Part shown: one piece after another, positions 9,713-47,373 of the stretch
How the letters are laid out: every line of letters begins with the position of its first letter
How positions within the stretch are numbered: position 1 is the first letter of the stretch
Source: Bacilli bacterium
Lineage (GTDB): Bacteria; Bacillota_I; Bacilli_A; ML615J-28; CAG-313
Reading direction: 5' to 3'
Assembly: GCA_045612145.1 (NCBI GenBank)
Contig: JAZKYN010000136.1
Coordinates: 1 to 63,871, forward strand
DNA length: 63,871 nt
Translations under genes and position numbers: made by a program
Notes under the pieces: model-generated
Database searches by the model: none
Told to the model about the DNA's origin: nothing
The model's input: the letters and a program-made list of their open reading frames with translations, nothing else

Positions 9713-9787
9713 GTCCTCATAGTTTAACGGATAAAATATAAGATTCCGATTCTTATGATAAAGGTTCAACTCCTTTTGAGGACACCA
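9713..9787 (+). tRNA. tRNA-Arg (anticodon CCG), CCA encoded
   Basis: Hand-folded cloverleaf. Acceptor GTCCTCA/TGAGGAC, D stem GTTT/AAAT, anticodon stem TAAGA/TCTTA with loop TTCCGAT (anticodon CCG), T arm AAAGG-TTCAACT-CCTTT, discriminator A, then CCA. Confidence 0.9.
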
Positions 9788-32010: not shown

Positions 32011-35000
32011 TTATCTACCTACGTATAAACCTTTAACCATTGAAGCTAATGTAATAGTTTGAGTTTGACCATCTTTAGTAATAGTTACTGTGTAAGTTAC
32101 ACATGTAGTTTCACTTGGTTGTTTAACAACTCTACCATTATCAGCAACGATATCAGTATTATTAGATTTCATAGATACTTCGTATCCTTCGAATTCTGTC
32201 ATCATTGTGTATTCAGATTCTACTAATTGTAAGAATTCACGCCAAATTTCACAATCATTTTCTAACATAGGTTGAGGACAGTTTTTACCAGAGAAGAAAT
32301 GATGTCCTTTAACTCTAGTCATATCTAAATCATTTCTAATCATAATGTCAGCAACTAATTGAGCAGTAATTTGCCATGTGTACCATAAGTCAGAACCTTT
32401 GTTTACACATGATTCAATACCGATTGAATTATAGTTACCACCACTTGAACAGATACGTCCTTCATATACTTGAGTATAGCACCACCATGTAGTACCCATA
32501 TAGTATTTACCATTTTCAACTTTCCATGGAAGACCCATATCATTGATAAATGATTCAGGAGTTCTATTAGCAAATCCAGATTGAGCGAATGCAGGTTGAG
32601 AAGAAATTGTACCATCAGCATTTAAGATATGATCTGTTCCTCTTGAACTATAGTTCCATGGTTTAGGCATTGGAATAGTAGTTTTTTTGCCATTGATTTC
32701 GAAATAGAAATCATCAGAAATTGTGATTACAGGTTCAGCTGGATCATTTGCTAATACTTCAATTCCAGTTTCCATCCATTTGAAATCACCAACTTGTGCA
32801 CGTGAACCAGAGTCACCAGCATGGAATGCAACATATTTTTCATCTGTACAATAGAAGATTCCATCGTTACCAGTTGTATAATGAATTGATGCAGCATTAG
32901 TAGTTGAGAAGTAGTTTGCATTTGCTGCAGCATCTGCACCAGATGCCATATTACCTGTATAGTGAACAGTTACCCATTCAACAGATGACATTTCACCACC
33001 ATTGTATGCAGTTTCTTGAGTTTTTGCATAGTATTTATCGCTAATAGTTAATTTATAGTTAGATAATAATTTAGAAACACTTCCAAAGATATCCATACTA
33101 TAAGCTCCACCGATATTTAAGTTATATCTAGTGAATACATTACTATTATTAGATTCAACAACTAATTCTAAAATTCCTTCAAGAGCTTCTTCTAATACAA
33201 CAACAACAAATTCTAATGTTAATGTTTCATTATCAGGGTCTGTTGCAACAATCTTAGCTTCACCAGCTTTTAATGCTGTAACAACACCGTTTGCATCAAC
33301 TGTAGCAATTTCAGGAGTTAATGAAGTCCATAATACATTTGCATTTGTACCATCTTTGCGAACAACTTGTGCATTTAATTGAATGCTATCGTCTTTTTCA
33401 ACGTATGAGTTTGTAGCGTAAGAACCATCAATATAATCTTCTGTATAAACAGTTAAATCAAATACAACGTCAATTTCACGGTTACCATATACTTTAACAG
33501 TAATAGTTGTTGTACCATTTGCTAAAGCAGTAATTAAACCTTTATTAGAAACTGTAGCAACTTCTTCATTACTTGAGAAGAATTCAACACTCTTATCTGT
33601 AGCGTTATCTGGAGCAATTGACCAAACTAATTGATGAGTTGTGAATAATAATAATTCAGTAACTTTATTAATTTCGATTGTAGTAGGTTTTACTTCTTCA
33701 GCCCATTTAGCATAGAATGTCTTATCACCAGTATCTGTTGATACAATTTGAGTAACAGGTTCACCATTGAATTCAGCATTATCATACCAACCTAAGAATT
33801 CAAGTCCATTTTCCATATGTAATGCAGGAAGAACTACGATTTGTCCACCACGGTAAGATGTTGGAATTTCTTGAGGAATCTTAGCTGCAGAACACATTTT
33901 TGGTAAGAATGATTTATAATATCCTTCACCAGTAGATGTCCATTGTAAGAATTGATGCATTCTAACCATTGTAGCATATGTATCAGTATAGAAGTTTTGA
34001 TCAGCATTAACACCTTTCATAGCTTCTGCGAATACTACGAAGAAATCAGACCATTTTTGATAGTATTTAGGAACATTTAAGAAATATTCTGTGCTACCAT
34101 CTTCTGCAGGATAATTACCTAATTCAGTATTACGTAATTTAATATCAGTATATGCAGCTAATTGTCCATCAATGTATGCTTTGTAATCTTCGAATGATTT
34201 AGTTTCTCCATTGCCTTGAGCCCATTCATATAAGTCAGCATATAATGCATCATAGATTTCGAATCTATCATATGCAGCACGTGAAGGCCATAAAGCATTA
34301 TCTTTGTTAGTAACAAATTCAACATTATAAATTTCACCTTCTAATACTGTGAAATCAGCAACTAATTCTAAGTTTCCTTTAGAATTTGCAGGAATTTCAA
34401 TTACTAATTCTCCATTTAATAACCAACCATTAAATTGGTGATTAGCTTTTGTAAGAGAAGGTAATGCGATAACCGCGTTATTTAAACTATTATAGTTATA
34501 AGTAAATGAATCTCTTGTTGAACCACCATTTAAATCATATGTGATAACCCAGAATTCAACAGTTTCTACTTCTGGTAAAGTTGGTTCAGAACCAAGAATA
34601 GTACCTTTAGTTTTTACATCAATAAAGTATTTATTTAATGTTTCTAAATCTGTAATAGCGTTACCATCATTGTCTTCATAATAGTTAGCACCAAAGATTG
34701 TATTGATTGGAGCAGTTGAATCATTATCACCTGATGTTCCATTTCTTGATGCGAAATAGTATGCATCTGGTAATCCAATGAATTTATTATTTAATACATT
34801 AACAACCCATGTACTTGAAGCATGGTTAGCAGCAGTACCATTGTTACGAAGTCTGATGTAATTTAAGCATCCTTCGAAGTGGTTGTTTTCAATATTAATT
34901 GTTGCACCTTTTTCTTGATAGTTACGTGCAGAGATTGCACCTGAGTATAATCCAGCATCTTTTGTACCAATATTAACGAATTTATTACCTTTAATATCGA

Positions 35001-38000
35001 TTGTAGTGTCATTAATGTTACCACCACCATAAATACGGAAGTAAATACCATTATATCCACCTAAAGTATCTTGTAAGAATTCATTATTAGTAAATGATAA
35101 GATACCATTATTGTATCCACCGTGATTAAATCTAATAGCATCACGTTCAAAGTTTTTAAATACGTTACCATCAAATGAAACATTTTGTACATAAGCTAAG
35201 TTAACGTTTGTATCTGAAACATTTTCAAATTTATTATTAAAGATAGCTAAATTTAATACTTGAGTAGAAGAAGATCCACCATTTAAGTACATAAATCCAT
35301 ATGTATAAGTATTAGTTTCAACCCATGCATTTGCAGCTTTTGTTGTATCATGTACATAGTTATTTTCAAATGTGAAATTAACTACTTGTCCACCAGAAAT
35401 TTTAGCATCACCAGTGAATGCAAGACCAACTAATTTTAAGTTTTTAGCAGCAGCAGCAATTTTAACAGCACCTGTTAATACAGCTTCAGCTTCTCTTACA
35501 CCTGAATTAGGGTTAACATATTGGTTAGGACCAGCAATTGTTAAGTTAGGAACTTTTATTTCAACATCTTCAGCATATGTACCAGCCATTAAGATAATCT
35601 TATCACCATCTTTTGCAGCAGCTAAAGCTTCAGCAAGAGTAGCATAATCTAGACCTTCACCAACATATAAAGCATCTTCTTTCCATGTAGCAACTAAAGT
35701 AACATCACCAGTTTGACCAATAGCTAAACTTTCAACGATTTGACCATTTAATGTCCAACCTAAGAATACATATTTGTCTTTAGTAGGAGTAGGAAGTTTT
35801 GCAAGACCAAGTTCTGAACTATAATATTCAGGAGCATTTTCAACTTCACCACCATTTAATTCATAAGTAATTTTGTATGAATTTTCTTTATCTACATATT
35901 GAGGAACTTCATCTTCATTTGCATAATAAGGATCGTATGTTGCATTTAAGAATGAACTTGCAAGAACTGCTACATCATAGAAGTTATATCTTGCATCAAT
36001 ATTATAAGCACATGCATTATTAATAAAGTATGTTGCAGAACAATTTAATAATTTATTATAGTTAACTGTAACTGGTTGAGTTTCAGCATTTCTGTTTGCA
36101 TTTGCATCTGATCTGTATAATGAATAAGAATTATCTACAGTATTGTATGCAAAGTTAACAGGAGATTTACCATCAGCAGCACCACTATAAGTTCCCATTC
36201 TTACAGCACAGTGAGAACCAGCTGTTTGACCATTATTTAAGAATGTATTATTAACAATTTCATAATTACCTTCTTGATAGTTAATGAACCAAATAACATA
36301 TTGAGCAAAGTTTTCGAAGTGGTTACCAATGATTTTAACATCACCTTTGATACCGAATTCACCTTTATGTGCATCAGCATCATCAGTTGTAATTTTAATA
36401 GCATCATTGTAATTTTTTCTACTTACATTGAAGTTACTATTTTTAATAGTTAATCCATCGATTTGTCCACCGAAGAAAATCATTGGACGACCATTTGTAA
36501 CGTCTGTTTGTTTAATATTTGAAATAACGATATTTTCATATACAGCACCAGCAGTGTATGTATAGAAGAATAATGGAGCATTTGTTGACCATGTTTCAGG
36601 GTTAGTTAATGAATCTTGAATTACAACGTTTGTAATTGTAGGATTAGCAACACCATTATCATTACCTTTAATACGTCCATTTTCAGTTAATTTAATACCA
36701 TCGATTGTAACATCATTAGCACTAATTACAACATCACCAGTAAATACTGTTTCGTTAGTTCTTTCAACTTGGTTAGGGTTAACACCAGCGTTAGCACCTA
36801 AAATAGTAACAGATTTTGTAATATTAATTGTTGTATAAGTACCAGCAGCAATTTTGATTGTATCTCCATCAACTGCAGCTTCTAATGCTTCTTCAAATGT
36901 TGCATATGCATCAGGATTATTAGCATCAACAACTAATTCTTTTGCAGGAACATCTAATTTATTCCATGCAGCATATAAAGTAACATCTTCTTCGCAATCA
37001 GCAGCGATTGATGTAATAGCTTGTGTACAAGCTTCATCAGCAAACCAACCTAAGAATTCATATCCAGCTTTTGTTGGAGTAGGAAGTGTTGCAAGACCAA
37101 CACCTAAAAGATAATCTTTAGGAGCACCTTCAGGAAGTTTACCACCATCTAATACATAGTTAATAGCTTTAGCAGTTTCAGCTTCCCATTTAGCAACTAA
37201 TTCATAATCTCTATTTTCAAGTTTTTCAACTAAAGTTTCACCTTCATACCAACCTAAGAATTTATATCCTTCACGAGTAGGAATAGGTAAAACAACAGCT
37301 TCATTATAACCAAATTCTACTTTAGCTCCTTCAGGTAAAATTCCTTCAGCAACATCGTAAGAAATTGTATATTTTAAAGTAGCAGTATCAACCCATTTTG
37401 CAGTTAATGTGCAATTTGATCTAACAGCTGTAACTAAATCTTCACCAATATACCAACCTAAGAATAAATGACCTTCTTTAACTGGAGTAGGTAAAGCATC
37501 TTTAGCACAATAAGTATTATCCATATCGCCTAATAGAGCATTAAATCTAGCAATATTTTCAGCAACTGAGTAATCTACCATATAACCATCGTACATACCT
37601 TTTTCAGCAGGAGCAAGATTTTCATTAATTAAACCTTGAATCCAATAACGGAAGATAGTTCTTGCATTACCACCATCATTAATATTAACAGCATTTACAT
37701 CACCAGCGATCATACCATCTAACATTTTGAATAAGTCAGTGTAATATTCATTACCTAAGAAGTTATTAGCAGCAGCTGCAGCTTGCATTTCAACTTTTGC
37801 AAATTCAAAGAACCATTTATATTTAGCAAGCATTTCTGCATTACTCCAAACATATTTAATATTTGGATGAGATGTTCCTTTGAAGTTTTCTTTTGTAGTT
37901 ACTTTAGCATCAGATTTACCTGTGCTATTAAAATCTTTTAATAATTCTTCAGCAAATGAATTTAAATCTTGACCTTCCCAATGACCACCATCAAGTTCGA

Positions 38001-41000
38001 ATTCAACTGTCCATTCGTAGTCATCGATATGAATCCATTCAGCAACTAATACATCATCACCAGTTGCATTTTGAACTTTTACACCATCTAAATACCAACC
38101 TAAGAAAATATAATTTTCTTTTACAGCTACTGGTAATTCTTCATTTGGTTCAACAGTTCTTTGAACTGGGCAATAAACATTAGTGAATTTTTCCATATTA
38201 TATTCATTAGAGAAATCTAACATAAATGGATAATCACCATTACCAACAATCTTATGGTTCATTAAACCTTCTAACCAGAAACGGAATGCAGTTCTACCTT
38301 CAGCATATGAACCACCAATTGTAGCAGTATTACCAGCGATTAAACCTTCTAACATTTCAACTGTATTTGTATAACGAGCAGATTCAGTTACACCATTTGC
38401 TTCACCTGCAGCTTTGATTTCTTCAAGTGCAAATACAAATAACCAATGATATTTTTCTAACATTTCTGTATTATTAAATACATATTTAATATTTGGATGA
38501 GAAGTTGATTTAAAGCTTTCTCTTGTAGTAACAACTGCATCACTTGCACCAGTACTATTGAAATCTTTAACTAATTCTTCAGCAAATTGATCTAAATTCT
38601 TTTCAAATTGACCACCGTTTAAATCGAAGATTACTTCGTAACCAGTTTGTCCAATTTCTTTCCATTTAGCAGTTAATTTATAATTTTCATTACCAATTTT
38701 ATTAACATATTCGCCTAATTGTGTCCAGCCTAAGAATTCATATCCTTCTTTAACTGGTTCAGGAATTACAACTTCTTGTCCATATTCAAATGATGTAGGT
38801 CCTTCTGTTCCTTCTAACCATGAACCTTCATTTAAATCATATTGAATTTCAAATTTAATAATTTCCCATTTAGCAGTTAAACTAGCATCACCAGATACTT
38901 TTTCAACTTTATCATCACCATCAAACCAACCTAAGAAGATATAACCAGTACGAACAGGAGTTGGTAATTTATCTTCAACAGATAATTTAAATACGCTGTT
39001 TTGAGCAGCTAAAGCAGCTTCAAATCTTTCCATATTTTCAGCAACAGAGAAGTCAGTCATGAATGGATAATCGCTATTACCAACGATTTTTTTGTTCATT
39101 AATCCTTCTAACCAGAATCTGAAAGCAGTTCTACCTTCAGCATATGAACCACCAATTGTTGCAGTATTACCAGCAATTAATCCTTCTAACATTTCAACTG
39201 TATTAGTATAACGAGCTTCACTTGTAGTACCATTAGCTTTTGCAGCAGCTTTGATTTCTTCAAGCGCTAATACAAATACCCAATGATATTTTTCTAACAT
39301 TTCAGCTTTATCAAATACATATTTAATGTTTGGATGAGAAGTAGCTTTAAAGTCTTCTTTAGTAGTAACTTTAGCATCACTTGCACCAGTGCTATTGAAA
39401 TCTTTAACTAATTCTTCAGCAAATGCATCTAAATCCATACCTTCAACGTTAAGAGCACCACCTTGTGCATCTAATGCAACATTATATTTAGCAGCTTCCC
39501 ATTTAGCAACTAATGTTGCTTCATAAGTAGCAGTTTCTACTTGAGTTTCACCATCAAACCAACCTACAAATACATAATGTTCTCTTTCGATTGCAGGTAA
39601 TTTTGCACCATGTTCTAATACTTGAGATGGCATAGATGCTCCACCTTCTTGAACATCATAGAATTTTTGTAAATTTTCAGCAACAGAGAAGTCAGTCATG
39701 AATGGATAATCTTTATTACCAACAATTTTTTGGTTCATTAATCCTTCTAACCAGAAACGGAATGCTGTTCTTCCTTCAGCGTAATCTCCACCAATTGTTG
39801 CAGTATTACCAGCGATTAATCCTTCTAACATTGCAACCGTATTAGTGTAACGAGCTTCACTTGTAGTACCATTTGCTTTTGCTGCAGCTTTAATTTCTTC
39901 AAGCGCAAATACAAATACCCAATGATATTTTTCTAACATTTCAGCTTTATTAAATACATATTTGATGTTTGGATGAGATGTAGCTTTGAAATCTTCTTTA
40001 GTAGTAACTTTTGCATCGCTTGCACCAGTACTATTGAAATCTTTAACTAATTCTTCAGCAAATTCATCAAGAGTAAGAGGTTCAGAATATTCTGTACCAT
40101 CGTTGTAATCAAAATAAATTTTATATTCATTAACTTTCCATGTAGCAACAAGTGTTAAAGCACCTGAAGTACCAGCAGGTATCTTATCGATTTTTTCACC
40201 ATTTAATTCCCATCCTGTGAATGTATAACCTTCACGTAATGGATCACATAAAATGATTTCATCTAATTTGCTATATTTATCAGGATTTGAATCACTATTT
40301 GTACCACCGTTTAATTCATAAGTAATTTCAAATCTTTCAGAGATATATTTTGCCCATAATTCGATATCACCAGTTGTTCCAAGAGGTAATTCATAAATAG
40401 CTTCACCAGTTAATTCAGCATTAGTATACCAACCAGCAAATTCTTGACCAGCAGGAGCACCAGGGATTGCAAGAGTATAAGGTAAATCTTCAACAGTATA
40501 TGTTGTTGGAGCAAGAACTACTTCTTCATGAATTAATTCAAAATGATCCCATACTTTACCCCAAACTTCTTCTGATGTATAGTCACTACCATAACCAGCA
40601 GTAACACCAGCATCTTTAGAAGATCTTGTTAATAAGTTTTGAAGTTCTCCACGAGCTTCAGCTTGACCATCGTCTTTTGTTAATTCAGCAGCACCACGAG
40701 CAACACGTGCTTCATTAATGATAACTAATAATCCATTCCATTTAGCACCGTATTCAGCACTTGTTAAGAAGTTATAACCAGCACTTGAACCATCGCCCAT
40801 ATAAGATCTTGCAAAGAAGTCAGATCCATCAGATTTAACTACTTTACCAGAATGTTTGTTGAAATCAACAACGAAATCAGCAACTAATGCAGCCCAATCA
40901 GCGTAATCACCAACTTGAATTGTGATAGTAGGAAGAGTACCTTCACCAGCATTATATTTAATTGAATATTCGATTGCTTCCCATGCAGCGTAAACTGTTT

Positions 41001-44000
41001 TTTCGCCTTTATCTAAAGCAGTGAATTCAGTTACTGCTACTGTGCAAGCAGCGTCTAAGAACCAACCTTTAAATTCATATCCTGAACGTGTAGCACCTTT
41101 AGAAAGAGCAACACCAGTTTCTTCAACGTATGATGTAGGAGCACCAGCTTCTAATGCACCACCGTTTAATTCATAATTAATAGCATAAGTATCAAATGCG
41201 ATTACTGAATCAGACCATCTAGCATATAAAGTAATATCGCCAATTAGATCTAATGAAATAGCTTCTACTTTACCATTTTTAAGATCACTATTTGTATACC
41301 AACCAACAAATGTAGCATCCTTTTTATTAGGAGTAGCAAGTGCAACTGGTAAATCATTAATTGTATATTCGTTTACAGCTTCAGTACCAACTTGAATGTC
41401 TTTATTAGGACATGCAGCCCAGAATGCTTCACCATCAACTTCTTTAAAGTTTAGAGAAACTGGAGAAACAGATGTTAACATTGTTTCTTGTAATAAAGCA
41501 GCAAAGTTAGATCTTGCATATTTATTAAAGTTAGCAGCACCAGCAGTTAATGATAAGTAAGCTTTACCTGTATATCCTGCTTCTGCAGCATATTCAGCAA
41601 CATATTCTAATACCCAACCCCATTTAGCAGCCATTTCAGCGTTATTGAAGAATGAGTATAATCCGTATTTAACTGATTTACCGTAGAAGTTAGCAGCAGT
41701 AACATCAGCAACACCAGTTAATGTAGCATAATCATTAATGAATTCAGCAACGAATGCATCAAATGAATCGTATAATTCAGCAACTTCGTCTCTAACGAAT
41801 TGTCCACCATTTAATTCATAAGTAATTTCATAAACTGTTAATTCCCATGCAGCATATAATTTAACACTTTCAAGTAATCCAGCTTCGATAGCTTCAACTT
41901 TTTCAGTGCATGCAGCATCAGAATACCAACCTAAGAATGTATAACCTAATTTAGTAGGAACAGGAAGAGTAGCTAAACCTTCAGCGTATGTAAATGATGT
42001 AGCAGCACCTTCTGGTAATACACCTTCATTTAATACATATTCAACAGCAATTGGATCATGAGACCATTTAGCTTCTAATACAACATCTTTAGCGATTAAA
42101 GCATTGATAGTTTCAACTTTTTCACCATTTAAATACCAGCCTAAGAATTCGTTTCCAGCTTTAGCAGGAACTGGTAATGTGATTTCGCCATCAGTATAAA
42201 TGAATGAAGTTACAGGATCAACAGCACCTGGTTTTTTAACTAAATCCCAGAAACCATTTCCGATAGCATCTAATGAATAATCAGCAGTTACATAATTTTT
42301 ATTTTTTGAATATTGAATAGCACCAACAAAACCTCTTAATTCATAAGCAATTGAGTAAATATAGTTACTATTTGCAGCATTTAACTCTGATTGACTATTA
42401 TATTTATTGAAGTTTTCCCATGCTTTTTTATTAGCAGAACCAGCTACGCTTGTAATATAATCTACTAACCAAGCCCATTTAGTTCTATATTCAGCATTAT
42501 ATAAGAATAATGATGCATCACTAATTTCACTCCAAGAACCTAGAGCTGAGAATGTTGCAGCTGTATGAGATTTACCTCTTGCAGTATTATAATCATTTAA
42601 GAAATCAGCAACTAATTCTTCACGAGATGAATATAAATAATTGCTTAATAATCCACCATTGTAGTTATATGTGATTGTATATTGATCAAGTTCAAATTTA
42701 GCAGTTAATTCAATATCACCAGCAGAACCTTTTTCAATTTTTTCAACTTTATTACCATCAGCATCATACCAACCTAAGAATTTTTCACCAAGTTTGTAAG
42801 CAACAGGTAATTCGAATGTTTCTGTATTAACTGTGAAAGTATTTACTAATTCAAAATTTAATAATTGATCCCAGAAACCATTAGCTAATTCATCATTAGT
42901 AAAGTCAGCACTCTTTGGCCAGCTTGCGCGACAATCTTCAAATAAGAATGCACCTAAAGAATATCTCCAGAATGCTTCACTACCACTGATTAAGCTATCT
43001 TTGCTTCCGCCTTCAGTAGACTCGATGATATAGTCTTTTAACCAAGCCCATTTAGCAGCATATTTAGCATCTGAGAAGAATCCATAAATAGCACTAAATA
43101 CGTTAGCGAATCCATATGCGTCTCCTGAATCATCAACCATGCAAGTAGGTTTGTTTGTTTTACCTGCCCATGCCATAGCATCATTTAAGAAATCATCAAC
43201 CATAGCAGCACGATCTTTACCATATTCATATAAATCACCAGGGTTAAGTGACCAGTCACCACCATTTAAGTTATATGAAATAGTGTATTCAGCTAATTCC
43301 CATTTAGCAACTAATTCAACGTTACCAATAGTTAATTTTTCAACTTTGTTTTCACCAGCATACCAACCTAAGAAATTATATCCATGTTTAGTTGGAGCAA
43401 CAAGAGTAACAGGAGCATCAACAACTGTGTATGCAGTTGGGTTAGTTTCAGCACCTTCACCACCAGCTAAATCATAACTTACAGTGTAAGTAATAATATC
43501 CCATTTAGCATAAAGTGTTAAGTCTTCTCTTGCATCAGCAGGGATTTCTGTTAATGCTTCACCAGTAAATGCAGCGTTATCATACCAACCAGCAAATGTA
43601 TAACCTTCTTTTGTAGCTTCAGCTAAAGCGATAGGAAGATTAAATACGTTGTAACCAGCAGGGTTAGTAGCAGCATTTGTACCACCGTCTAAAACGTAGT
43701 TAACTGTGAAATCAGACTCTAAAACTTCAAGTTCAAATTTATATGTACGATATTCTTCTTCGTATAATAAATTTTCTGCAACAACTGTAATAGTTACTTT
43801 ACCAGCTTTTAAAGTAGTAATTAAACCATTTTCATCGATTGCAGCAACTTCTGGATTAGATGATGCATAAGTTAATTTAACATTTTCTTCTGCTTCTGCA
43901 GGAGTAAATGTGCATTCAACTTGGCTAGTTTTTCCTTTAAGGATACTGCCTTCAGCACCAACAAATTCCATTTCAGGAAGTCTGTCTTGAATAACTGTGA

Positions 44001-44322
44001 TAACAACTGTATCATATGCGATTGCTTTATTAGCAACATATGCTTTTACCACAGTTTGACCAACGCTTACACCAGTAACTTTTGCGTCACTATAAGAAGC
44101 GATTAAATCATTTTGTGAAACGTAAACAAGATCTACTTGTCCAGCAGCTTCACCTTTGTTTACTGTTGGAACTACATCGATAGTTTCACCAACAACGATT
44201 ACATATTCATCAGTATCAAACTTAACTTCAACGTAATCATTAACTTTTGTACAGCTAGCGATACTAACTAGTAAACCAACAATAGTTAATAATAAGAAAA
44301 ATCTTTTTCTAATGTTTAACAT
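32011..44322 (-). CDS. giant (4103 aa) surface lipoprotein. In order: 2 Ig-like domains, 19 Listeria-Bacteroides repeats (9 with a nested helical module), 2 beta-helix modules, 2 more Ig-like domains and a C-terminal Amidase_2-like domain.
   Basis: Uninterrupted 12.3-kb ORF with GGAGA 5 nt before the ATG. Signal peptide with lipobox IASC (Cys24). Recurrent G(Y/x)xFxGW(Y/F)...L(Y/x)AKW repeats. Beta-helix N-caps DGDTIKIAAGTYT and DGDKIILMAGTYA. Amidase motifs VTVHYTGN, AFHAGD, NSIGIE and KNCP. Confidence 0.95.
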   Translation of the reverse strand: MLNIRKRFFLLLTIVGLLVSIASCTKVNDYVEVKFDTDEYVIVVGETIDVVPTVNKGEAAGQVDLVYVSQNDLIASYSDAKVTGVSVGQTVVKAYVANKAIAYDTVVITVIQDRLPEMEFVGAEGSILKGKTSQVECTFTPAEAEENVKLTYASSNPEVAAIDENGLITTLKAGKVTITVVAENLLYEEEYRTYKFELEVLESDFTVNYVLDGGTNAATNPAGYNVFNLPIALAEATKEGYTFAGWYDNAAFTGEALTEIPADAREDLTLYAKWDIITYTVSYDLAGGEGAETNPTAYTVVDAPVTLVAPTKHGYNFLGWYAGENKVEKLTIGNVELVAKWELAEYTISYNLNGGDWSLNPGDLYEYGKDRAAMVDDFLNDAMAWAGKTNKPTCMVDDSGDAYGFANVFSAIYGFFSDAKYAAKWAWLKDYIIESTEGGSKDSLISGSEAFWRYSLGAFLFEDCRASWPKSADFTNDELANGFWDQLLNFELVNTFTVNTETFELPVAYKLGEKFLGWYDADGNKVEKIEKGSAGDIELTAKFELDQYTITYNYNGGLLSNYLYSSREELVADFLNDYNTARGKSHTAATFSALGSWSEISDASLFLYNAEYRTKWAWLVDYITSVAGSANKKAWENFNKYNSQSELNAANSNYIYSIAYELRGFVGAIQYSKNKNYVTADYSLDAIGNGFWDLVKKPGAVDPVTSFIYTDGEITLPVPAKAGNEFLGWYLNGEKVETINALIAKDVVLEAKWSHDPIAVEYVLNEGVLPEGAATSFTYAEGLATLPVPTKLGYTFLGWYSDAACTEKVEAIEAGLLESVKLYAAWELTVYEITYELNGGQFVRDEVAELYDSFDAFVAEFINDYATLTGVADVTAANFYGKSVKYGLYSFFNNAEMAAKWGWVLEYVAEYAAEAGYTGKAYLSLTAGAANFNKYARSNFAALLQETMLTSVSPVSLNFKEVDGEAFWAACPNKDIQVGTEAVNEYTINDLPVALATPNKKDATFVGWYTNSDLKNGKVEAISLDLIGDITLYARWSDSVIAFDTYAINYELNGGALEAGAPTSYVEETGVALSKGATRSGYEFKGWFLDAACTVAVTEFTALDKGEKTVYAAWEAIEYSIKYNAGEGTLPTITIQVGDYADWAALVADFVVDFNKHSGKVVKSDGSDFFARSYMGDGSSAGYNFLTSAEYGAKWNGLLVIINEARVARGAAELTKDDGQAEARGELQNLLTRSSKDAGVTAGYGSDYTSEEVWGKVWDHFELIHEEVVLAPTTYTVEDLPYTLAIPGAPAGQEFAGWYTNAELTGEAIYELPLGTTGDIELWAKYISERFEITYELNGGTNSDSNPDKYSKLDEIILCDPLREGYTFTGWELNGEKIDKIPAGTSGALTLVATWKVNEYKIYFDYNDGTEYSEPLTLDEFAEELVKDFNSTGASDAKVTTKEDFKATSHPNIKYVFNKAEMLEKYHWVFVFALEEIKAAAKANGTTSEARYTNTVAMLEGLIAGNTATIGGDYAEGRTAFRFWLEGLMNQKIVGNKDYPFMTDFSVAENLQKFYDVQEGGASMPSQVLEHGAKLPAIEREHYVFVGWFDGETQVETATYEATLVAKWEAAKYNVALDAQGGALNVEGMDLDAFAEELVKDFNSTGASDAKVTTKEDFKATSHPNIKYVFDKAEMLEKYHWVFVLALEEIKAAAKANGTTSEARYTNTVEMLEGLIAGNTATIGGSYAEGRTAFRFWLEGLMNKKIVGNSDYPFMTDFSVAENMERFEAALAAQNSVFKLSVEDKLPTPVRTGYIFLGWFDGDDKVEKVSGDASLTAKWEIIKFEIQYDLNEGSWLEGTEGPTSFEYGQEVVIPEPVKEGYEFLGWTQLGEYVNKIGNENYKLTAKWKEIGQTGYEVIFDLNGGQFEKNLDQFAEELVKDFNSTGASDAVVTTRESFKSTSHPNIKYVFNNTEMLEKYHWLFVFALEEIKAAGEANGVTESARYTNTVEMLEGLIAGNTATIGGSYAEGRTAFRFWLEGLMNHKIVGNGDYPFMLDFSNEYNMEKFTNVYCPVQRTVEPNEELPVAVKENYIFLGWYLDGVKVQNATGDDVLVAEWIHIDDYEWTVEFELDGGHWEGQDLNSFAEELLKDFNSTGKSDAKVTTKENFKGTSHPNIKYVWSNAEMLAKYKWFFEFAKVEMQAAAAANNFLGNEYYTDLFKMLDGMIAGDVNAVNINDGGNARTIFRYWIQGLINENLAPAEKGMYDGYMVDYSVAENIARFNALLGDMDNTYCAKDALPTPVKEGHLFLGWYIGEDLVTAVRSNCTLTAKWVDTATLKYTISYDVAEGILPEGAKVEFGYNEAVVLPIPTREGYKFLGWYEGETLVEKLENRDYELVAKWEAETAKAINYVLDGGKLPEGAPKDYLLGVGLATLPTPTKAGYEFLGWFADEACTQAITSIAADCEEDVTLYAAWNKLDVPAKELVVDANNPDAYATFEEALEAAVDGDTIKIAAGTYTTINITKSVTILGANAGVNPNQVERTNETVFTGDVVISANDVTIDGIKLTENGRIKGNDNGVANPTITNVVIQDSLTNPETWSTNAPLFFYTYTAGAVYENIVISNIKQTDVTNGRPMIFFGGQIDGLTIKNSNFNVSRKNYNDAIKITTDDADAHKGEFGIKGDVKIIGNHFENFAQYVIWFINYQEGNYEIVNNTFLNNGQTAGSHCAVRMGTYSGAADGKSPVNFAYNTVDNSYSLYRSDANANRNAETQPVTVNYNKLLNCSATYFINNACAYNIDARYNFYDVAVLASSFLNATYDPYYANEDEVPQYVDKENSYKITYELNGGEVENAPEYYSSELGLAKLPTPTKDKYVFLGWTLNGQIVESLAIGQTGDVTLVATWKEDALYVGEGLDYATLAEALAAAKDGDKIILMAGTYAEDVEIKVPNLTIAGPNQYVNPNSGVREAEAVLTGAVKIAAAAKNLKLVGLAFTGDAKISGGQVVNFTFENNYVHDTTKAANAWVETNTYTYGFMYLNGGSSSTQVLNLAIFNNKFENVSDTNVNLAYVQNVSFDGNVFKNFERDAIRFNHGGYNNGILSFTNNEFLQDTLGGYNGIYFRIYGGGNINDTTIDIKGNKFVNIGTKDAGLYSGAISARNYQEKGATINIENNHFEGCLNYIRLRNNGTAANHASSTWVVNVLNNKFIGLPDAYYFASRNGTSGDNDSTAPINTIFGANYYEDNDGNAITDLETLNKYFIDVKTKGTILGSEPTLPEVETVEFWVITYDLNGGSTRDSFTYNYNSLNNAVIALPSLTKANHQFNGWLLNGELVIEIPANSKGNLELVADFTVLEGEIYNVEFVTNKDNALWPSRAAYDRFEIYDALYADLYEWAQGNGETKSFEDYKAYIDGQLAAYTDIKLRNTELGNYPAEDGSTEYFLNVPKYYQKWSDFFVVFAEAMKGVNADQNFYTDTYATMVRMHQFLQWTSTGEGYYKSFLPKMCSAAKIPQEIPTSYRGGQIVVLPALHMENGLEFLGWYDNAEFNGEPVTQIVSTDTGDKTFYAKWAEEVKPTTIEINKVTELLLFTTHQLVWSIAPDNATDKSVEFFSSNEEVATVSNKGLITALANGTTTITVKVYGNREIDVVFDLTVYTEDYIDGSYATNSYVEKDDSIQLNAQVVRKDGTNANVLWTSLTPEIATVDANGVVTALKAGEAKIVATDPDNETLTLEFVVVVLEEALEGILELVVESNNSNVFTRYNLNIGGAYSMDIFGSVSKLLSNYKLTISDKYYAKTQETAYNGGEMSSVEWVTVHYTGNMASGADAAANANYFSTTNAASIHYTTGNDGIFYCTDEKYVAFHAGDSGSRAQVGDFKWMETGIEVLANDPAEPVITISDDFYFEINGKKTTIPMPKPWNYSSRGTDHILNADGTISSQPAFAQSGFANRTPESFINDMGLPWKVENGKYYMGTTWWCYTQVYEGRICSSGGNYNSIGIESCVNKGSDLWYTWQITAQLVADIMIRNDLDMTRVKGHHFFSGKNCPQPMLENDCEIWREFLQLVESEYTMMTEFEGYEVSMKSNNTDIVADNGRVVKQPSETTCVTYTVTITKDGQTQTITLASMVKGLYVGR
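32260..32990 (-). other. C-terminal N-acetylmuramoyl-L-alanine amidase (Amidase_2/PGRP-like) domain with an internal insertion
   Basis: Motif order is EWVTVHYTGN ... SIHYTT ... YVAFHAGD [about 120 aa] NYNSIGIESC ... VKGHHFFSGKNCPQP. In T7 lysozyme and CwlA, as I recall them, the HxGD and NSIG(V/I)E motifs are only about 10 residues apart. Confidence 0.7.
33200..33700 (-). other. two Big_2-like Ig domains preceding the amidase
   Basis: SIAPDNATDKSVEFFSSNEEVATVSNKGLITALANGTTTITV and LWTSLTPEIATVDANGVVTALKAGEAKIVA are typical Big_2 signatures. Confidence 0.65.
33930..34266 (-). repeat. helical-module copy 9 (distal, diverged), nested in the repeat after beta-helix 2
   Basis: Encodes RFEIYDALYADLYEWAQGNGETKSFEDYKAY...PKYYQKWSDFFVVFAEAMKG...MVRMHQFLQW. 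It lies between a YNVEF strand and LPALHMENGLEFLGWYDN. Confidence 0.6.
34620..35690 (-). other. right-handed parallel beta-helix module 2
   Basis: N-cap YATLAEALAAAKDGDKIILMAGTYAEDVEIKVPNLTIAGPNQYVNPN, followed by Asn/Gly-rich coils of about 22-25 aa (NNYV, NNKFENV, DGNVFKNF, NNEF, GNKFVNI, NNHFEGC, NNKFIG). Confidence 0.65.
35930..36950 (-). other. right-handed parallel beta-helix module 1
   Basis: N-cap YATFEEALEAAVDGDTIKIAAGTYTTINITKSVTILGANAGVNPN, followed by repetitive coils (ANDVTIDGI, ITNVVIQDS, YENIVISNI, GLTIKNSNF, IIGNHFENF, VNNTFLNN). Confidence 0.65.
37540..37962 (-). repeat. helical-module copy 8 (more diverged)
   Basis: Encodes NSFAEELLKDFNSTGKSDAKVTTKENFKGTSHPNIKYVWSNAEMLAKYKWFFEFAKVEMQ...YSVAENIARF. 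Confidence 0.8.
38180..38592 (-). repeat. helical-module copy 7
   Basis: Encodes DQFAEELVKDFNSTGASDAVVTTRESFKSTSHPNIKYVFNNTEMLEKYHWLFVFALEEIKAAGEANG...FSNEYNMEKF. Confidence 0.85.
39010..39429 (-). repeat. helical-module copy 6
   Basis: Encodes DAFAEELVKDFNSTGASDAKV...FSVAENMERF. My by-eye alignment to copy 5 shows about 30 mismatches in about 395 nt. Confidence 0.85.
39650..40068 (-). repeat. helical-module copy 5 (first of four recent copies)
   Basis: Encodes DEFAEELVKDFNSTGASDAKVTTKEDFKATSHPNIKYVFNKAEMLEKYHWVFVFALEEIKAAAKANG...FSVAENLQKF. Confidence 0.85.
44251..44322 (-). other. lipoprotein signal peptide of the 4103-aa protein
   Basis: MLNIRKRFFLLLTIVGLLVSIASC has a basic n-region, a hydrophobic core and the lipobox I-A-S-C, with Cys at residue 24. 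Confidence 0.8.
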
Positions 44323-44640: not shown

Positions 44641-47373
44641 TTATCTAAAGAATTCTACATTATCAATAGCTATACGAGCATTTTGATTAGATGTATAAGT
44701 ACTTGAAGCTTCAGTGTAAATTCTTACAAATTTAGCATCAACTAAATCTACAACAATTTCAGTATATTTAGTAGCATCAATTTTGCTAGCTGATCCTAAA
44801 TCTACTGATGTCCAAGTTTTTCCATCTGTAGAATATTGTACTTCAAATTTTTTGATTTTTGAGGCATGCGAACTCTTATCACTTGAACTCCACCAAGATA
44901 CATCAAATTTAATTCTTGACACTGCTTCATTAAATTTAAATTCAAAGAATGAATTTTTTGTACTATTATTTTTTCTTGTAGGGCAAAGAACACCAAAAGA
45001 TCCAGTATTTTTATGAGGAGCATTTGTAGAATTTGTAATTTGAGCTTGATGACCAGTAATTGTAACACTCTTTCCTGATAATTCTTCTTTAACTGATAGT
45101 GATTTATTATTTGTATAACCAGTTAAATTTAAGCTACCAAATGTATATTGTTCACATAATTCAGGTTCTGAAACATAAACATACTCAATTGAAGCAACAT
45201 AAACTGTATAACTTGGCATATTATGAGAAATACTAACATATGTATAATGTTGTGTATCTGGATAAATTTCATAAACAGCTTGACCACTAACTGTAGACAT
45301 AGTTGTTGCGTAATCACTATATGAATTATCTGTACCAAATTCAATTAATAATGCATCTTTATTATTATATCCAGTTCTTCCAGTTGTTAATGTAATTATA
45401 ACTTTTTCTAATTTTTTAGTAAATGCTGTCGCATTAGCAATTGAAGAATGAATATTATTTTTATATCTCATTTGGATATCATCGTTATTATATTTACCAA
45501 GTTGGATGTAATCAAATTTAACACCTGTAATAACTTTTGAACCGTCAGCATAATTTCCTAATCCTAATGCTTCATCGGTAACAACAACAGATTTAACATC
45601 TTCAGGATCTTTAGCAACAATAACAATTTCGTATACTTTAGTTGCAACAGCTTTGTTATATTTGCAAGTACCAACTAATTTGATTACAGCATCACCATCA
45701 AAATTTTCTGGGCGAGTAACTTTTAATACACCGTTTTCGATTTTTGCATTTTCATAATCTTCTGCAAGAGCAAATGTTACATTTTCAACTTGTGGAAGTT
45801 TGTAATCTTCTACTAAATTCTTTTCAATTGAAATATTTTCTAATACTTCTTCACCTCTCATCTCATCTGTTACTAATACTTCTTCATATAAGTGAGAAAT
45901 ATAGTTAGTTGAGCTTGATAAGTAACTTGAGTAACTAGCACTAAATGTTGTATAAGAATTATATGTACCTAAGAATAAAGTATCACTTCCAAGTTTTGCA
46001 GTGAATGTATTGTATTGTTCATTATATTGCCATACAGTTGAAGGACTAGCGTTAAATTTAATGTTATTGTATGATCCACTCTTTTCTAAACAAATATATT
46101 TAACTGATCCATTTTTTAAAGTTAATTTTAAGTAATATCCACCAGTAGTTTCAACAACGTTAAGTTTAGCAGCACTTGCAAAACTTGTTGTAGTTGCACC
46201 ATAGTAACCACTTAATGTACCAGTCATGTATAATGTTTGTTTTTTGTTACCTTGATACATACCTAAAACATAATCTTTTGATGTATCAAATGTTTCAGCA
46301 ACTCTAATTTTAAATTCACCAAATACTGGTTTAAGAGTTAAATCACCACTTGTACCATATCCAATTTCTGTGATTAACGCATCTAATTCTTCATTTGCTT
46401 CACCATTTTCATCAATGATTGCCCATCCTAAGAATCTCCATCCAGTTTGAGTTGCTTTACGTGTTGGTAAATCAAATTCATCAAAATATGTATATTCTAC
46501 TGTTTCTTCAGTATCTGTATAAGTAATAGTATATTTAGCGATTTCCCATTTAGCATAGAATAAATAATCATGTGCATTTGAAGTATCAACAGTTTCAACT
46601 GCATTACCAGCTAAATTTTTATTTCCATACCATCCTAAGAAATTATAACCAGTTTTAACAGGAGTTGGAAGAGTAATAACTTCTTCGCCAGCTCTAAATT
46701 GATTTTCAAATTCTTCTTCTAATTCTCCACCTTCTAAGTTAAGTGTAATATTATAAATATTAAGTACTTTATATTCAAATTTATATTCTAGATATTGATC
46801 AGTATTTTTCTTATCAACAATTTTTGCAGTAAATACAACTTTACCTTTTGCTAAAGCAGTAATGTTACCTTCAGCATCAATAGTTGCAACTTTTTCATTT
46901 GAACTTGAAAATTGCATTTCAACATTTGGATTTTGATGAGAATATTCATAAACTAATTTATTTTCATCACCAATATATAAATTTCCTTCTAAGCCTGCAG
47001 GACCTTCAACATCAAATGTTGCTTCAGGCATATCAATAATTTCATATACATCAATTTCAGCTGTAGCTGCGATATATTTTTTTCCTTCGATCCATACTTT
47101 AACAGTTGTTGAGCCTACGCCTACTGCAGTTAATTCTCCTTCATTACATTCAACAACAGTATCATCTTCAACATCCCATTGGAATTTATAATTTGTTTCA
47201 CCAGCATTTTTTAAAATAGGTTCAAGTGTTAAATTATCTCCTAATTCTAAATCATAGCTAGTTTTCTCAAAATCTAATTGTATAGAATTTGAAATGTCTC
47301 CACAACTTGCAAGTGTAAATGCAAAAGCAAATACTGCAATTAATAAAAACAATCTAATATAATTTTTTTTCAT
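44641..47373 (-). CDS. 910-aa surface lipoprotein. In order: 2 Ig-like domains, 2 Listeria-Bacteroides repeats, an unassigned central region and C-terminal jelly-roll (discoidin/CBM-like) modules.
   Basis: Signal peptide MKKNYIRLFLLIAVFAFAFTLASC (lipobox LASC, Cys24). Big_2-like VATIDAEGNITALAKGKVVFTA. Repeats GYNFLGWYGN...LFYAKW and GWRFLGWAII...LKPVFG. The C-terminus is KKFEVQYSTDGKTWTSV...AKFVRIY...IAIDNVEFF. Confidence 0.9.
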   Translation of the reverse strand: MKKNYIRLFLLIAVFAFAFTLASCGDISNSIQLDFEKTSYDLELGDNLTLEPILKNAGETNYKFQWDVEDDTVVECNEGELTAVGVGSTTVKVWIEGKKYIAATAEIDVYEIIDMPEATFDVEGPAGLEGNLYIGDENKLVYEYSHQNPNVEMQFSSSNEKVATIDAEGNITALAKGKVVFTAKIVDKKNTDQYLEYKFEYKVLNIYNITLNLEGGELEEEFENQFRAGEEVITLPTPVKTGYNFLGWYGNKNLAGNAVETVDTSNAHDYLFYAKWEIAKYTITYTDTEETVEYTYFDEFDLPTRKATQTGWRFLGWAIIDENGEANEELDALITEIGYGTSGDLTLKPVFGEFKIRVAETFDTSKDYVLGMYQGNKKQTLYMTGTLSGYYGATTTSFASAAKLNVVETTGGYYLKLTLKNGSVKYICLEKSGSYNNIKFNASPSTVWQYNEQYNTFTAKLGSDTLFLGTYNSYTTFSASYSSYLSSSTNYISHLYEEVLVTDEMRGEEVLENISIEKNLVEDYKLPQVENVTFALAEDYENAKIENGVLKVTRPENFDGDAVIKLVGTCKYNKAVATKVYEIVIVAKDPEDVKSVVVTDEALGLGNYADGSKVITGVKFDYIQLGKYNNDDIQMRYKNNIHSSIANATAFTKKLEKVIITLTTGRTGYNNKDALLIEFGTDNSYSDYATTMSTVSGQAVYEIYPDTQHYTYVSISHNMPSYTVYVASIEYVYVSEPELCEQYTFGSLNLTGYTNNKSLSVKEELSGKSVTITGHQAQITNSTNAPHKNTGSFGVLCPTRKNNSTKNSFFEFKFNEAVSRIKFDVSWWSSSDKSSHASKIKKFEVQYSTDGKTWTSVDLGSASKIDATKYTEIVVDLVDAKFVRIYTEASSTYTSNQNARIAIDNVEFFR
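44644..45100 (-). other. C-terminal discoidin/CBM-like beta-sandwich of the 910-aa protein
   Basis: The pattern IKKFEVQYSTDGKTWTSV ... YTEIVVDLVDAKFVRIYT ... ARIAIDNVEF resembles F5/8 type C carbohydrate-binding modules. Confidence 0.5.
46330..46775 (-). repeat. two Listeria-Bacteroides repeats in the 910-aa protein
   Basis: YNITLNLEGG...LPTPVKTGYNFLGWYGN...LFYAKWEIAKYTITY...LPTRKATQTGWRFLGWAI...LTLKPVFG. Confidence 0.7.
47302..47373 (-). other. lipoprotein signal peptide of the 910-aa protein
   Basis: Lipobox L-A-S-C with Cys at residue 24, the same position as in the 4103-aa protein. Confidence 0.8.

Follow-up and report, generated by a model that had tools for sequence, protein, structure and literature searches.

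A helical domain of an uncatalogued family is nested in Listeria-Bacteroides repeats of a large Bacilli surface protein

We describe a helical domain found within the repeats of a surface protein of 4103 amino acids (aa), encoded in a 63,871-nucleotide stretch of DNA from a Bacilli bacterium (contig JAZKYN010000136.1 of assembly GCA_045612145.1; this whole stretch is referred to as the window). The protein contains 19 Listeria-Bacteroides (Flg_new) repeats, as counted with a local hidden Markov model (HMM) that covers the last two-thirds of the repeat, towards its C-terminus. In nine of the 19, the repeat is split after its first strand (YTISYNLNGG-like), and the remainder of the same repeat (LPxPxKxGxxFxGWY...AKW) follows only after an insert of 138-156 aa. 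We find that this insert, of about 140-155 aa, folds as an autonomous all-alpha domain and represents an uncatalogued family.

That nine of the 19 repeats are interrupted after the first strand had been proposed from the sequence, and this original prediction holds on the 4103-aa translation. The inserts had been put at 120-140 aa, a similar size to what we measure but slightly too short. Units 1-8 lie in the tandem region earlier given as 37540-43290; the region is the same, but the units span 37390-43287 and their inserts 37519-43257, i.e. the low end was off by up to about 150 nucleotides (nt). The ninth copy had been placed at 33930-34266, the right location, but its insert covers 33862-34299 and the complete unit 33700-34329.

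The nine units are listed below, all on the minus strand. Bit scores are from an independent HMM, built solely with modules from other proteins, none of which reaches 50% identity to the window copies.

42691-43287 (-): unit 1, aa 346-544; insert 42844-43257 (aa 356-493), subtype 'MVDDFLNDAMAW'; independent HMM 128.7 bits
42061-42681 (-): unit 2, aa 548-754; insert 42211-42651 (aa 558-704); independent HMM 159.0 bits
41212-41832 (-): unit 3, aa 831-1037; insert 41374-41802 (aa 841-983); independent HMM 136.2 bits
40342-40968 (-): unit 4, aa 1119-1327; insert 40507-40938 (aa 1129-1272); independent HMM 101.1 bits
39496-40125 (-): unit 5, aa 1400-1609; insert 39628-40095 (aa 1410-1565); independent HMM 147.5 bits; modelled with AlphaFold2
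38863-39486 (-): unit 6, aa 1613-1820; insert 38992-39456 (aa 1623-1777); recent duplicate of unit 5
38032-38640 (-): unit 7, aa 1895-2097; insert 38161-38610 (aa 1905-2054); independent HMM and DNA identity
37390-38013 (-): unit 8, aa 2104-2311; insert 37519-37983 (aa 2114-2268); independent HMM 159.7 bits
33700-34329 (-): unit 9, aa 3332-3541; insert 33862-34299 (aa 3342-3487), divergent subtype C; AlphaFold2 and hhalign

A six-frame scan found no further copies of the module elsewhere in the window. The inserts share a DF(L/I)ND-like motif at the start and K(W/Y)xW(L/V)xx(Y/F) at the centre, both of which had been noticed before, while the aromatic FW/VW motif reported near the end is present in copies 1-4 only. 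The K(W/Y)xW motif is the best-conserved feature of the whole family, its K and second W being at least 90% conserved among 61 diverse members.

The independent HMM scores units 1-8 at 101-160 bits, and inserts 1-8 are therefore one family. Unit 9 reaches only 14 bits and has a subfamily of its own, with ten copies in other proteins. When the profile of this subtype C is aligned to the main family with hhalign, the E-value is 2.3e-5 and the score 35.5 over 63 columns, which cover the first helix and the helix with the KW motif; 40 column-shuffled profiles score at most 15.7 and the reversed profile 13.5. Since the score is above all controls, we count copy 9 as a distant subtype. Further, one member of its subfamily, P0101, has the main-family motif EMVEAFLTDF. 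The relation is clear over the N-terminal half only, and by these sequence comparisons the protein has eight clear copies and one that is probably homologous.

The copies differ greatly in how similar they are to each other. At the protein level inserts 5-7 are 77-83% identical (83% for insert 6 against insert 5), insert 8 shares about 50% with these three, and all other pairs show 20-36%. The protein thus holds at least six insert subtypes with a mutual identity of 20-36%. At the DNA level, inserts 5-7 are 84-91% identical over 300 nt, with 91% between units 5 and 6, which means that the recent amplification suspected earlier is real.

The structures of units 5 and 9 were predicted with AlphaFold2, using aa 1398-1611 and 47 aligned nested units for the former and 10 aligned sequences for the latter. 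Unit 5 reaches a mean predicted local distance difference test score (pLDDT) of 93.3 and a predicted template modelling score (pTM) of 0.77; for unit 9 the two values are 91.8 and 0.80. Both models start with a strand at residues 2-8. In unit 5 it is followed by eight helices within residues 21-164 and by strands 2-5 at residues 169-213, and in unit 9 by five helices within residues 24-150, with a long loop at 61-88, and then by the remaining strands. No segment in either model has a pLDDT below 50. As modelled, the insert is a compact all-alpha globule between strand 1 and the rest of the beta repeat, in line with the all-alpha fold that its composition had suggested.

The beta part of the models was compared with 350,542 PDB chains using Foldseek. 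It matches InlB B-repeat entries only, at a probability of 0.94-0.97 and with modest E-values of 0.06-0.12. The best match is 2y5p, with a TM-score of 0.57 normalised to the target and a root-mean-square deviation (rmsd) of 3.0 Å over 61 columns. Among the BFVD folds, the only matches to the beta part are repeat-containing phage proteins. In the models, the split beta halves would still form the repeat, from which the helical globule would project sideways as a side domain of the stalk segment.

The InlB B-repeat has a beta-grasp-like fold that lacks the usual helix between beta2 and beta3 (PMC8900821). By profile and by the modelled beta halves, the host domain of the module is the same as this repeat (Flg_new, PF09479, TIGR02543, 2Y5P). 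However, where the B-repeat has a turn of about 10 residues between beta1 and beta2, nine units of the window protein have a helical domain of about 150 aa. The insert replaces this short beta1-beta2 turn and does not occupy the position of the beta2-beta3 helix. This agrees with the Pfam Flg_new profile, which past the insert picks up again at position 12 of 65; unit 9 matches positions 12-65.

The nine interrupted units are members of Flg_new with a nested foreign domain. They match the profile and the B-repeat fold, although the contiguous unit of about 65-70 aa is broken in these nine of the 19. Our searches of the literature on the Flg_new repeat turned up no nested form, and none is found among the PDB entries matched by Foldseek.

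Next, we compared the helical part with known families. Seven of the window inserts were searched against Pfam at E<=10: six had no match and insert 9 had chance matches only, the weak DUF6055 and Cds6_C matches being rejected as they do not recur in the subtype C family. For 61 diverse modules, no Pfam family is matched by more than two members (best E-value 0.009), and NCBIfam and PHROGs give isolated chance matches only. The module profile has no match to any PDB sequence in one search and a single match with an E-value of 5.6 in another. Against the same 350,542 PDB chains, Foldseek finds only matches with E-values above 0.4, TM-scores of at most 0.31 and an rmsd above 10 Å; hemerythrin-like, terpene-synthase-like and talin-like matches were dropped at this level, with an rmsd of 11-17 Å. 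There is no meaningful match among the BFVD folds.

The original prediction had been unable to assign the module to a family, and neither can these searches of Pfam, NCBIfam, PHROGs, PDB sequences and PDB and BFVD folds. It had also suggested a structure prediction followed by Foldseek as a check, and this gave a confident helical insert, an InlB B-repeat as the beta part and a helical part that is unmatched.

It could be argued that the module is a very divergent member of a characterised helical family (wall-binding, immunoglobulin-binding or lysozyme-like) that was missed here, given that the fold searches covered the PDB and BFVD and that small helical bundles are hard to match. We regard this as improbable: 61 diverse members lack a consistent match in all three family collections, the profile searches of the PDB give nothing below an E-value of 5, and two confident models find only the poor helical matches described above, in BFVD as in the PDB.

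The module is not restricted to the window. In an exhaustive HMMER profile search over 1.84 billion cluster representatives we find 228 protein clusters at E<=1e-3, of which 100 reach E<=1e-10 and 22 reach E<=1e-30. Two word-indexed searches with alignments of the inserts had yielded no more than 4 close fragments and 1, respectively. The family proteins are mostly large and many have 2-8 copies of the module. To describe the nesting we used the 152 best proteins, which contain 232 copies of near-full length. The C-terminal part of Flg_new begins within 60 aa after about 80% of these copies, and the end of the preceding repeat lies within 20 aa before about 73%. With about 80% of the copies nested, nesting is the rule.

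There are also free-standing modules, in P0027, P0030, P0031, P0034, P0055, P0133 and P0135. These are located between Pro/Glu linkers or Cys-rich motifs, and no Flg_new flanks are detectable with the local HMM, with Pfam or by eye. Free-standing and nested copies are 50-65% identical. The existence of free copies indicates that the module is autonomous, folds on its own and has both entered and left the repeat. In two proteins, P0032 and P0034, a beta-helix-like region lies within about 30 residues after a free-standing module.

As to the surroundings of the free modules, P0027, P0030, P0031 and P0135 have Cys-rich repeats (CTE.GLTEGKKCS.CGEVL...; C.ECG.CTAEDCDG) before the module and Pro/Glu linkers after it. 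At its N-terminus P0032 also has a methylation motif like that of type IV pilins, and a dockerin is found in P0058.

For 20 family proteins we examined the sources by cluster. All are metagenomes or metagenome-assembled genomes (MAGs) from ENA, NCBI-MAG, Logan or JGI/IMG, never UniRef, and none of the proteins has a name, bar one 'hypothetical protein'. The absence from UniRef among these 20 clusters may explain why curated families have missed the module. A genome scan with subtype-B patterns found two records named 'MAG: Bacilli bacterium', one from a human-gut species-level genome bin (SGB) and one from sheep colon; the scan is narrow and this count of two loci underestimates the distribution. 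None of the viral contigs scanned carries the module. Exact-sequence look-ups gave no record for the 4103-aa protein or for the DnaK encoded in the window.

The closest ortholog of the window protein, P0005 (4105 aa, locus L005), is found on two contigs; in the plain repeats, the beta halves and most of the inserts its identity to the window protein is 73-93%. From this pair we calculated the ratio of nonsynonymous to synonymous substitution rates (dN/dS) by the Nei-Gojobori method. The ratio is 0.32 for inserts 3-9, and individually 0.36 for insert 3, 0.24 for insert 4 and 0.10 for insert 9. For the other parts of the protein it is 0.25-0.27 in the beta halves, 0.32 in the plain repeats and 0.35 in the Big_2/amidase end. 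The inserts are under purifying selection and are constrained like the remaining protein. A selected function of the module, as was suggested before, is supported by the ratio of 0.32 for inserts 3-9, as in the rest of the protein. Subtypes 3, 4 and 9 are 77-92% conserved in P0005, insert 3 being 77% identical.

Metagenome assemblies and MAGs are the source of all known members, which might raise the suspicion that the insert is not a real domain but a disordered linker, a low-complexity expansion or an assembly artefact. This is effectively refuted. The models have pLDDT values of 92-93 with no segment below 50, the 228 clusters derive from many independent samples, P0005 is found on two contigs, and the module is under purifying selection within an intact frame of 12.3 kb.

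At two positions the ortholog differs sharply from the window protein. Insert 1 (42844-43257) shows only 34-38% identity to P0005 (aa ~356-509), while its flanks show 61-80%, and P0005 has a subtype similar to that of unit 4 there. In P0006 and P0008 the insert-1 subtype of the window is located in different repeats, at aa 1142 and aa 557 respectively, which points to a positional shuffling of cassettes. At the site of insert 2, P0005 (aa 561-696; L005:1842-2249) has an unrelated cassette of about 135 aa, here called cassette X. Its flanks are near-identical to those in the window (YTITYNYNGG ... SFIYTDxEIxLP), and the amino acid identity falls sharply at the insert boundaries.

Cassette X is characterised by the motif WW.YI.L.ET...G.YEI.QIV...VT.EYDYVI.WHS...YVG.YV. 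It has no match in Pfam and is absent from the window, but at least 17 of the 152 family proteins contain it. In all but one of 12 copies inspected it follows strand 1 of Flg_new; in the exception, P0066, the match starts within the AKW end of the previous repeat. The presence of cassette X at the same site, together with subtypes at varying positions, indicates that the beta1-beta2 loop is an insertion hot spot whose contents are shuffled. A further step, possible but on the doubtful side, is that this loop is a natural display site for at least two unrelated, uncatalogued cassettes (the helical one with its three deep subtypes A, B and C, and cassette X). These would be recombined via the beta flanks, from one position to another and among close strains, and would re-program the binding specificity of giant amidase-bearing fibres in uncultured gut Bacilli; the walls of other bacteria or host glycans are possible targets.

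To see where the nested units are placed we consider the complete protein. It is encoded by an open reading frame (ORF) at 32011-44322 on the minus strand, unbroken across 12.3 kb. From the N-terminus the parts are a lipoprotein-type signal, Big_2, the 19 Flg_new repeats (nine with helical inserts), two beta-helix-like regions, Big_2, Amidase_2 and aBig_2. The Pfam matches are Flg_new PF09479 (E-value 5e-147, 14 stretches), Big_2, Big-like, Amidase_2 and aBig_2, and the NCBIfam match is TIGR02543 (E-value 3e-90). The gene and the parts outside the units are as follows.

32011-44322 (-): surface-protein gene; ORF list and translation, with Pfam, NCBIfam and the local HMM for the 19 repeats
44251-44322 (-): putative N-terminal signal with lipobox-like VSIASC, aa 1-24; read from the translation
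35923-36930 (-): beta-helix-like region 1, aa 2465-2800, distal to the repeat stalk; sequence pattern only
34498-35685 (-): beta-helix-like region 2, aa 2880-3275; sequence pattern and weak PDB sequence match
32743-32985 (-): Amidase_2 (N-acetylmuramoyl-L-alanine amidase), best-matching stretch, aa 3780-3860; Pfam PF01510, E-value 2e-16

A lipoprotein-type anchor is predicted from the lipobox-like sequence, which a regular expression also finds at the N-terminus of 72 of the 152 family proteins. The two beta-helix-like regions (about 340-400 aa) have a pattern as in parallel beta-helices, TIxIxAGTY... with NxxIxxN repeats. Region 1 has no match in Pfam or among PDB sequences. Region 2 has none in Pfam, and its sole PDB sequence match is a weak one to pectinesterase (1xg2, E-value 0.017). 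Several of these parts recur in the family (n=152): the C-terminal amidase in 36 proteins, beta-helix-like region 2 in 34, region 1 in 20 and Big_2 regions in 45-49.

If the organism were wall-less, as the Mollicutes are, a peptidoglycan amidase would be odd. A related organism speaks against this: P0007 (3104 aa; locus L004, GCA_965338945.1), which has the module and a C-terminal Amidase_2, is encoded directly upstream of rsmH, a penicillin-binding protein (PBP), murE and mraY. The proximity to PBP, MurE and MraY indicates that the organism of P0007 makes peptidoglycan.

What could such modules do? We infer, tentatively and with slightly less than even confidence, that the helical globules are exchangeable recognition or binding heads. 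A helical domain would have been spliced into the beta1-beta2 hairpin loop of a Listeria-Bacteroides repeat, the composite unit would have been multiplied by tandem duplication, and cassettes would have been exchanged by recombination between the conserved beta flanks. Several diverged subtypes on one membrane-anchored fibre could then make attachment multivalent and variable between strains, the ligand being a glycan, a protein or part of the cell wall. In this way the fibre would bring its distal beta-helix regions and its C-terminal peptidoglycan amidase onto their substrate.

We prefer binding heads because the module is autonomous, because its subtypes are deeply diverged yet individually conserved, because cassettes are exchanged and because free copies are found near beta-helix-like regions. 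A further reason is that wall hydrolases, by analogy, have targeting modules in several copies. The exchange of cassettes between orthologs favours a role in determining specificity, without proving one.

Several observations weigh against binding heads. The analysis found no ligand, pocket or binding residue for the module. The modules are acidic, with a median isoelectric point (pI) of 4.7 and only 2% of them above pI 7, which argues against electrostatic binding to anionic wall polymers of the kind seen for GW or CWB2. GW and CWB2 domains are basic. Electrostatic binding of the teichoic-acid type is therefore judged unlikely. Further, the dN/dS comparison with P0005 gives no diversifying selection inside a cassette, and exchange is seen in one close ortholog pair, with positional shuffling in distant relatives, all of them metagenome assemblies. 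Finally, the high pTM suggests that in the models the insert packs rigidly on the repeat, which would fit a structural role equally well.

Such a role would mean that the globule packs on its repeat and on neighbouring units and stiffens, thickens, spaces or protease-shields a stalk that we estimate to be about 50 nm long, with no external ligand. The pTM of 0.77-0.80, which suggests that insert and repeat are fixed relative to each other, points in this direction, and so do the acidity that the modules share with the remaining protein, a purifying selection equal to that on the plain stalk repeats, and the view of Flg_new as a stalk domain of fibrillar adhesins (PMC9210967). However, free-standing copies occur off any repeat stalk, between flexible linkers and beside enzyme-like regions. 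At least six deeply diverged subtypes are present in one protein, several of which are conserved in the ortholog, and an unrelated cassette can take the same site; a spacer would not need such diversity. On balance a purely structural role seems unlikely, though it deserves to be taken seriously.

Alternatively, instead of being a binding head, the insert could be an enzyme or a cofactor-binding domain whose substrate is the one on which the amidase and the beta-helix regions act. The conserved polar residues of the module are D, N, T, K, R, R and S. The invariant or near-invariant ones among them (K, D, R, R and DxS) in a compact globule of about 150 aa, and the co-occurrence with hydrolase-type domains, are what one might expect from an enzyme. 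However, the most conserved positions are mainly aromatic or hydrophobic and of core type, no enzyme fold is matched, and nine copies with at least six diverged subtypes per chain would be unusual for a catalytic domain. We therefore find this very improbable.

Returning to binding heads, domain-in-domain insertion is a known way of displaying a functional head. One nested-domain adhesin of Gram-positive bacteria is the pilus adhesin RrgA, in which one domain is inserted in another. Domain-in-domain display on Gram-positive surface fibres is thus already known. What is new is the inserted fold family, its repeated lateral placement on the stalk, and that one Flg_new hairpin hosts interchangeable unrelated cassettes.

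Fibrillar adhesins have stalks of repeats that include Flg_new (Monzon et al., J Bacteriol 2022, PMC9210967), and the window protein resembles them in being a long, cell-anchored fibre of repeated stalk domains that bears functional domains. It has both the stalk repeats and the anchor of this architecture, with 19 Flg_new repeats, several Big_2 and, by reading, a lipobox-like N-terminus. In fibrillar adhesins and RrgA, however, the head occurs once, at the tip, and LPXTG is used, while here there are nine modules along the stalk, a lipobox, an amidase at the tip and a new inserted fold. The helical module is only a candidate adhesive domain.

A second comparison is with the wall-binding repeats LysM, SH3b, GW, CW_binding_1/2, SLH and PG_binding_1. 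What is common is that several non-catalytic modules are found in the same chain as a peptidoglycan amidase. However, none of these domains appears in Pfam scans of the whole protein or of the inserts, and the module has no profile match to them; it is all-alpha, about 150 aa long, acidic, and nested rather than in tandem.

The domains of protein A and the GA module are three-helix bundles of 45-60 aa that occur in tandem and bind host proteins. Like the module described here they are small repeated helical domains on surface proteins. In contrast, the window module is a globule of 5-8 helices and 140-155 aa, and neither the sequence searches nor Foldseek match it to these domains.

The Listeria-Bacteroides repeat is usually seen as an inert stalk. 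The present results show that it tolerates and retains a full domain in one hairpin, and that this hairpin hosts differing cassettes. If the heads bind ligands, they would provide handles on the attachment targets of giant amidase-bearing proteins in uncultured gut Bacilli, and the repeat could be used as a scaffold for engineered domain display. With Pfam-style models for the module and cassette X, several hundred regions that are now blank in large metagenomic proteins would gain an annotation.

The gene is not the only one for a surface protein in this part of the window. Immediately upstream, at 44641-47373 on the minus strand, a second surface protein of 910 aa has Big_2, a single Flg_new and an F5/8 type C (discoidin) domain, and is without the helical module. 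Both large genes lie between dnaJ and rsmE, within a block hrcA-grpE-dnaK-dnaJ ... rsmE-mtaB (31173-52152, minus strand) that is otherwise typical for Firmicutes. The gap between dnaJ and rsmE is usually occupied by prmA. On the contig of P0005, the downstream gene encodes another protein with Flg_new, Big_2 and Amidase_2, which indicates that the genome position of the surface-protein gene is not conserved.

The window has a G+C content of about 29% and nearly all of its genes are on the minus strand, including about 43 of the 46 large ORFs. Over positions 1-63871 the cumulative GC skew drops monotonically, and together with the strand bias this indicates that the window lies inside one replichore, without origin or terminus. 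The sole RNA gene is a tRNA-Arg(CCG) at 9713-9787 on the plus strand.

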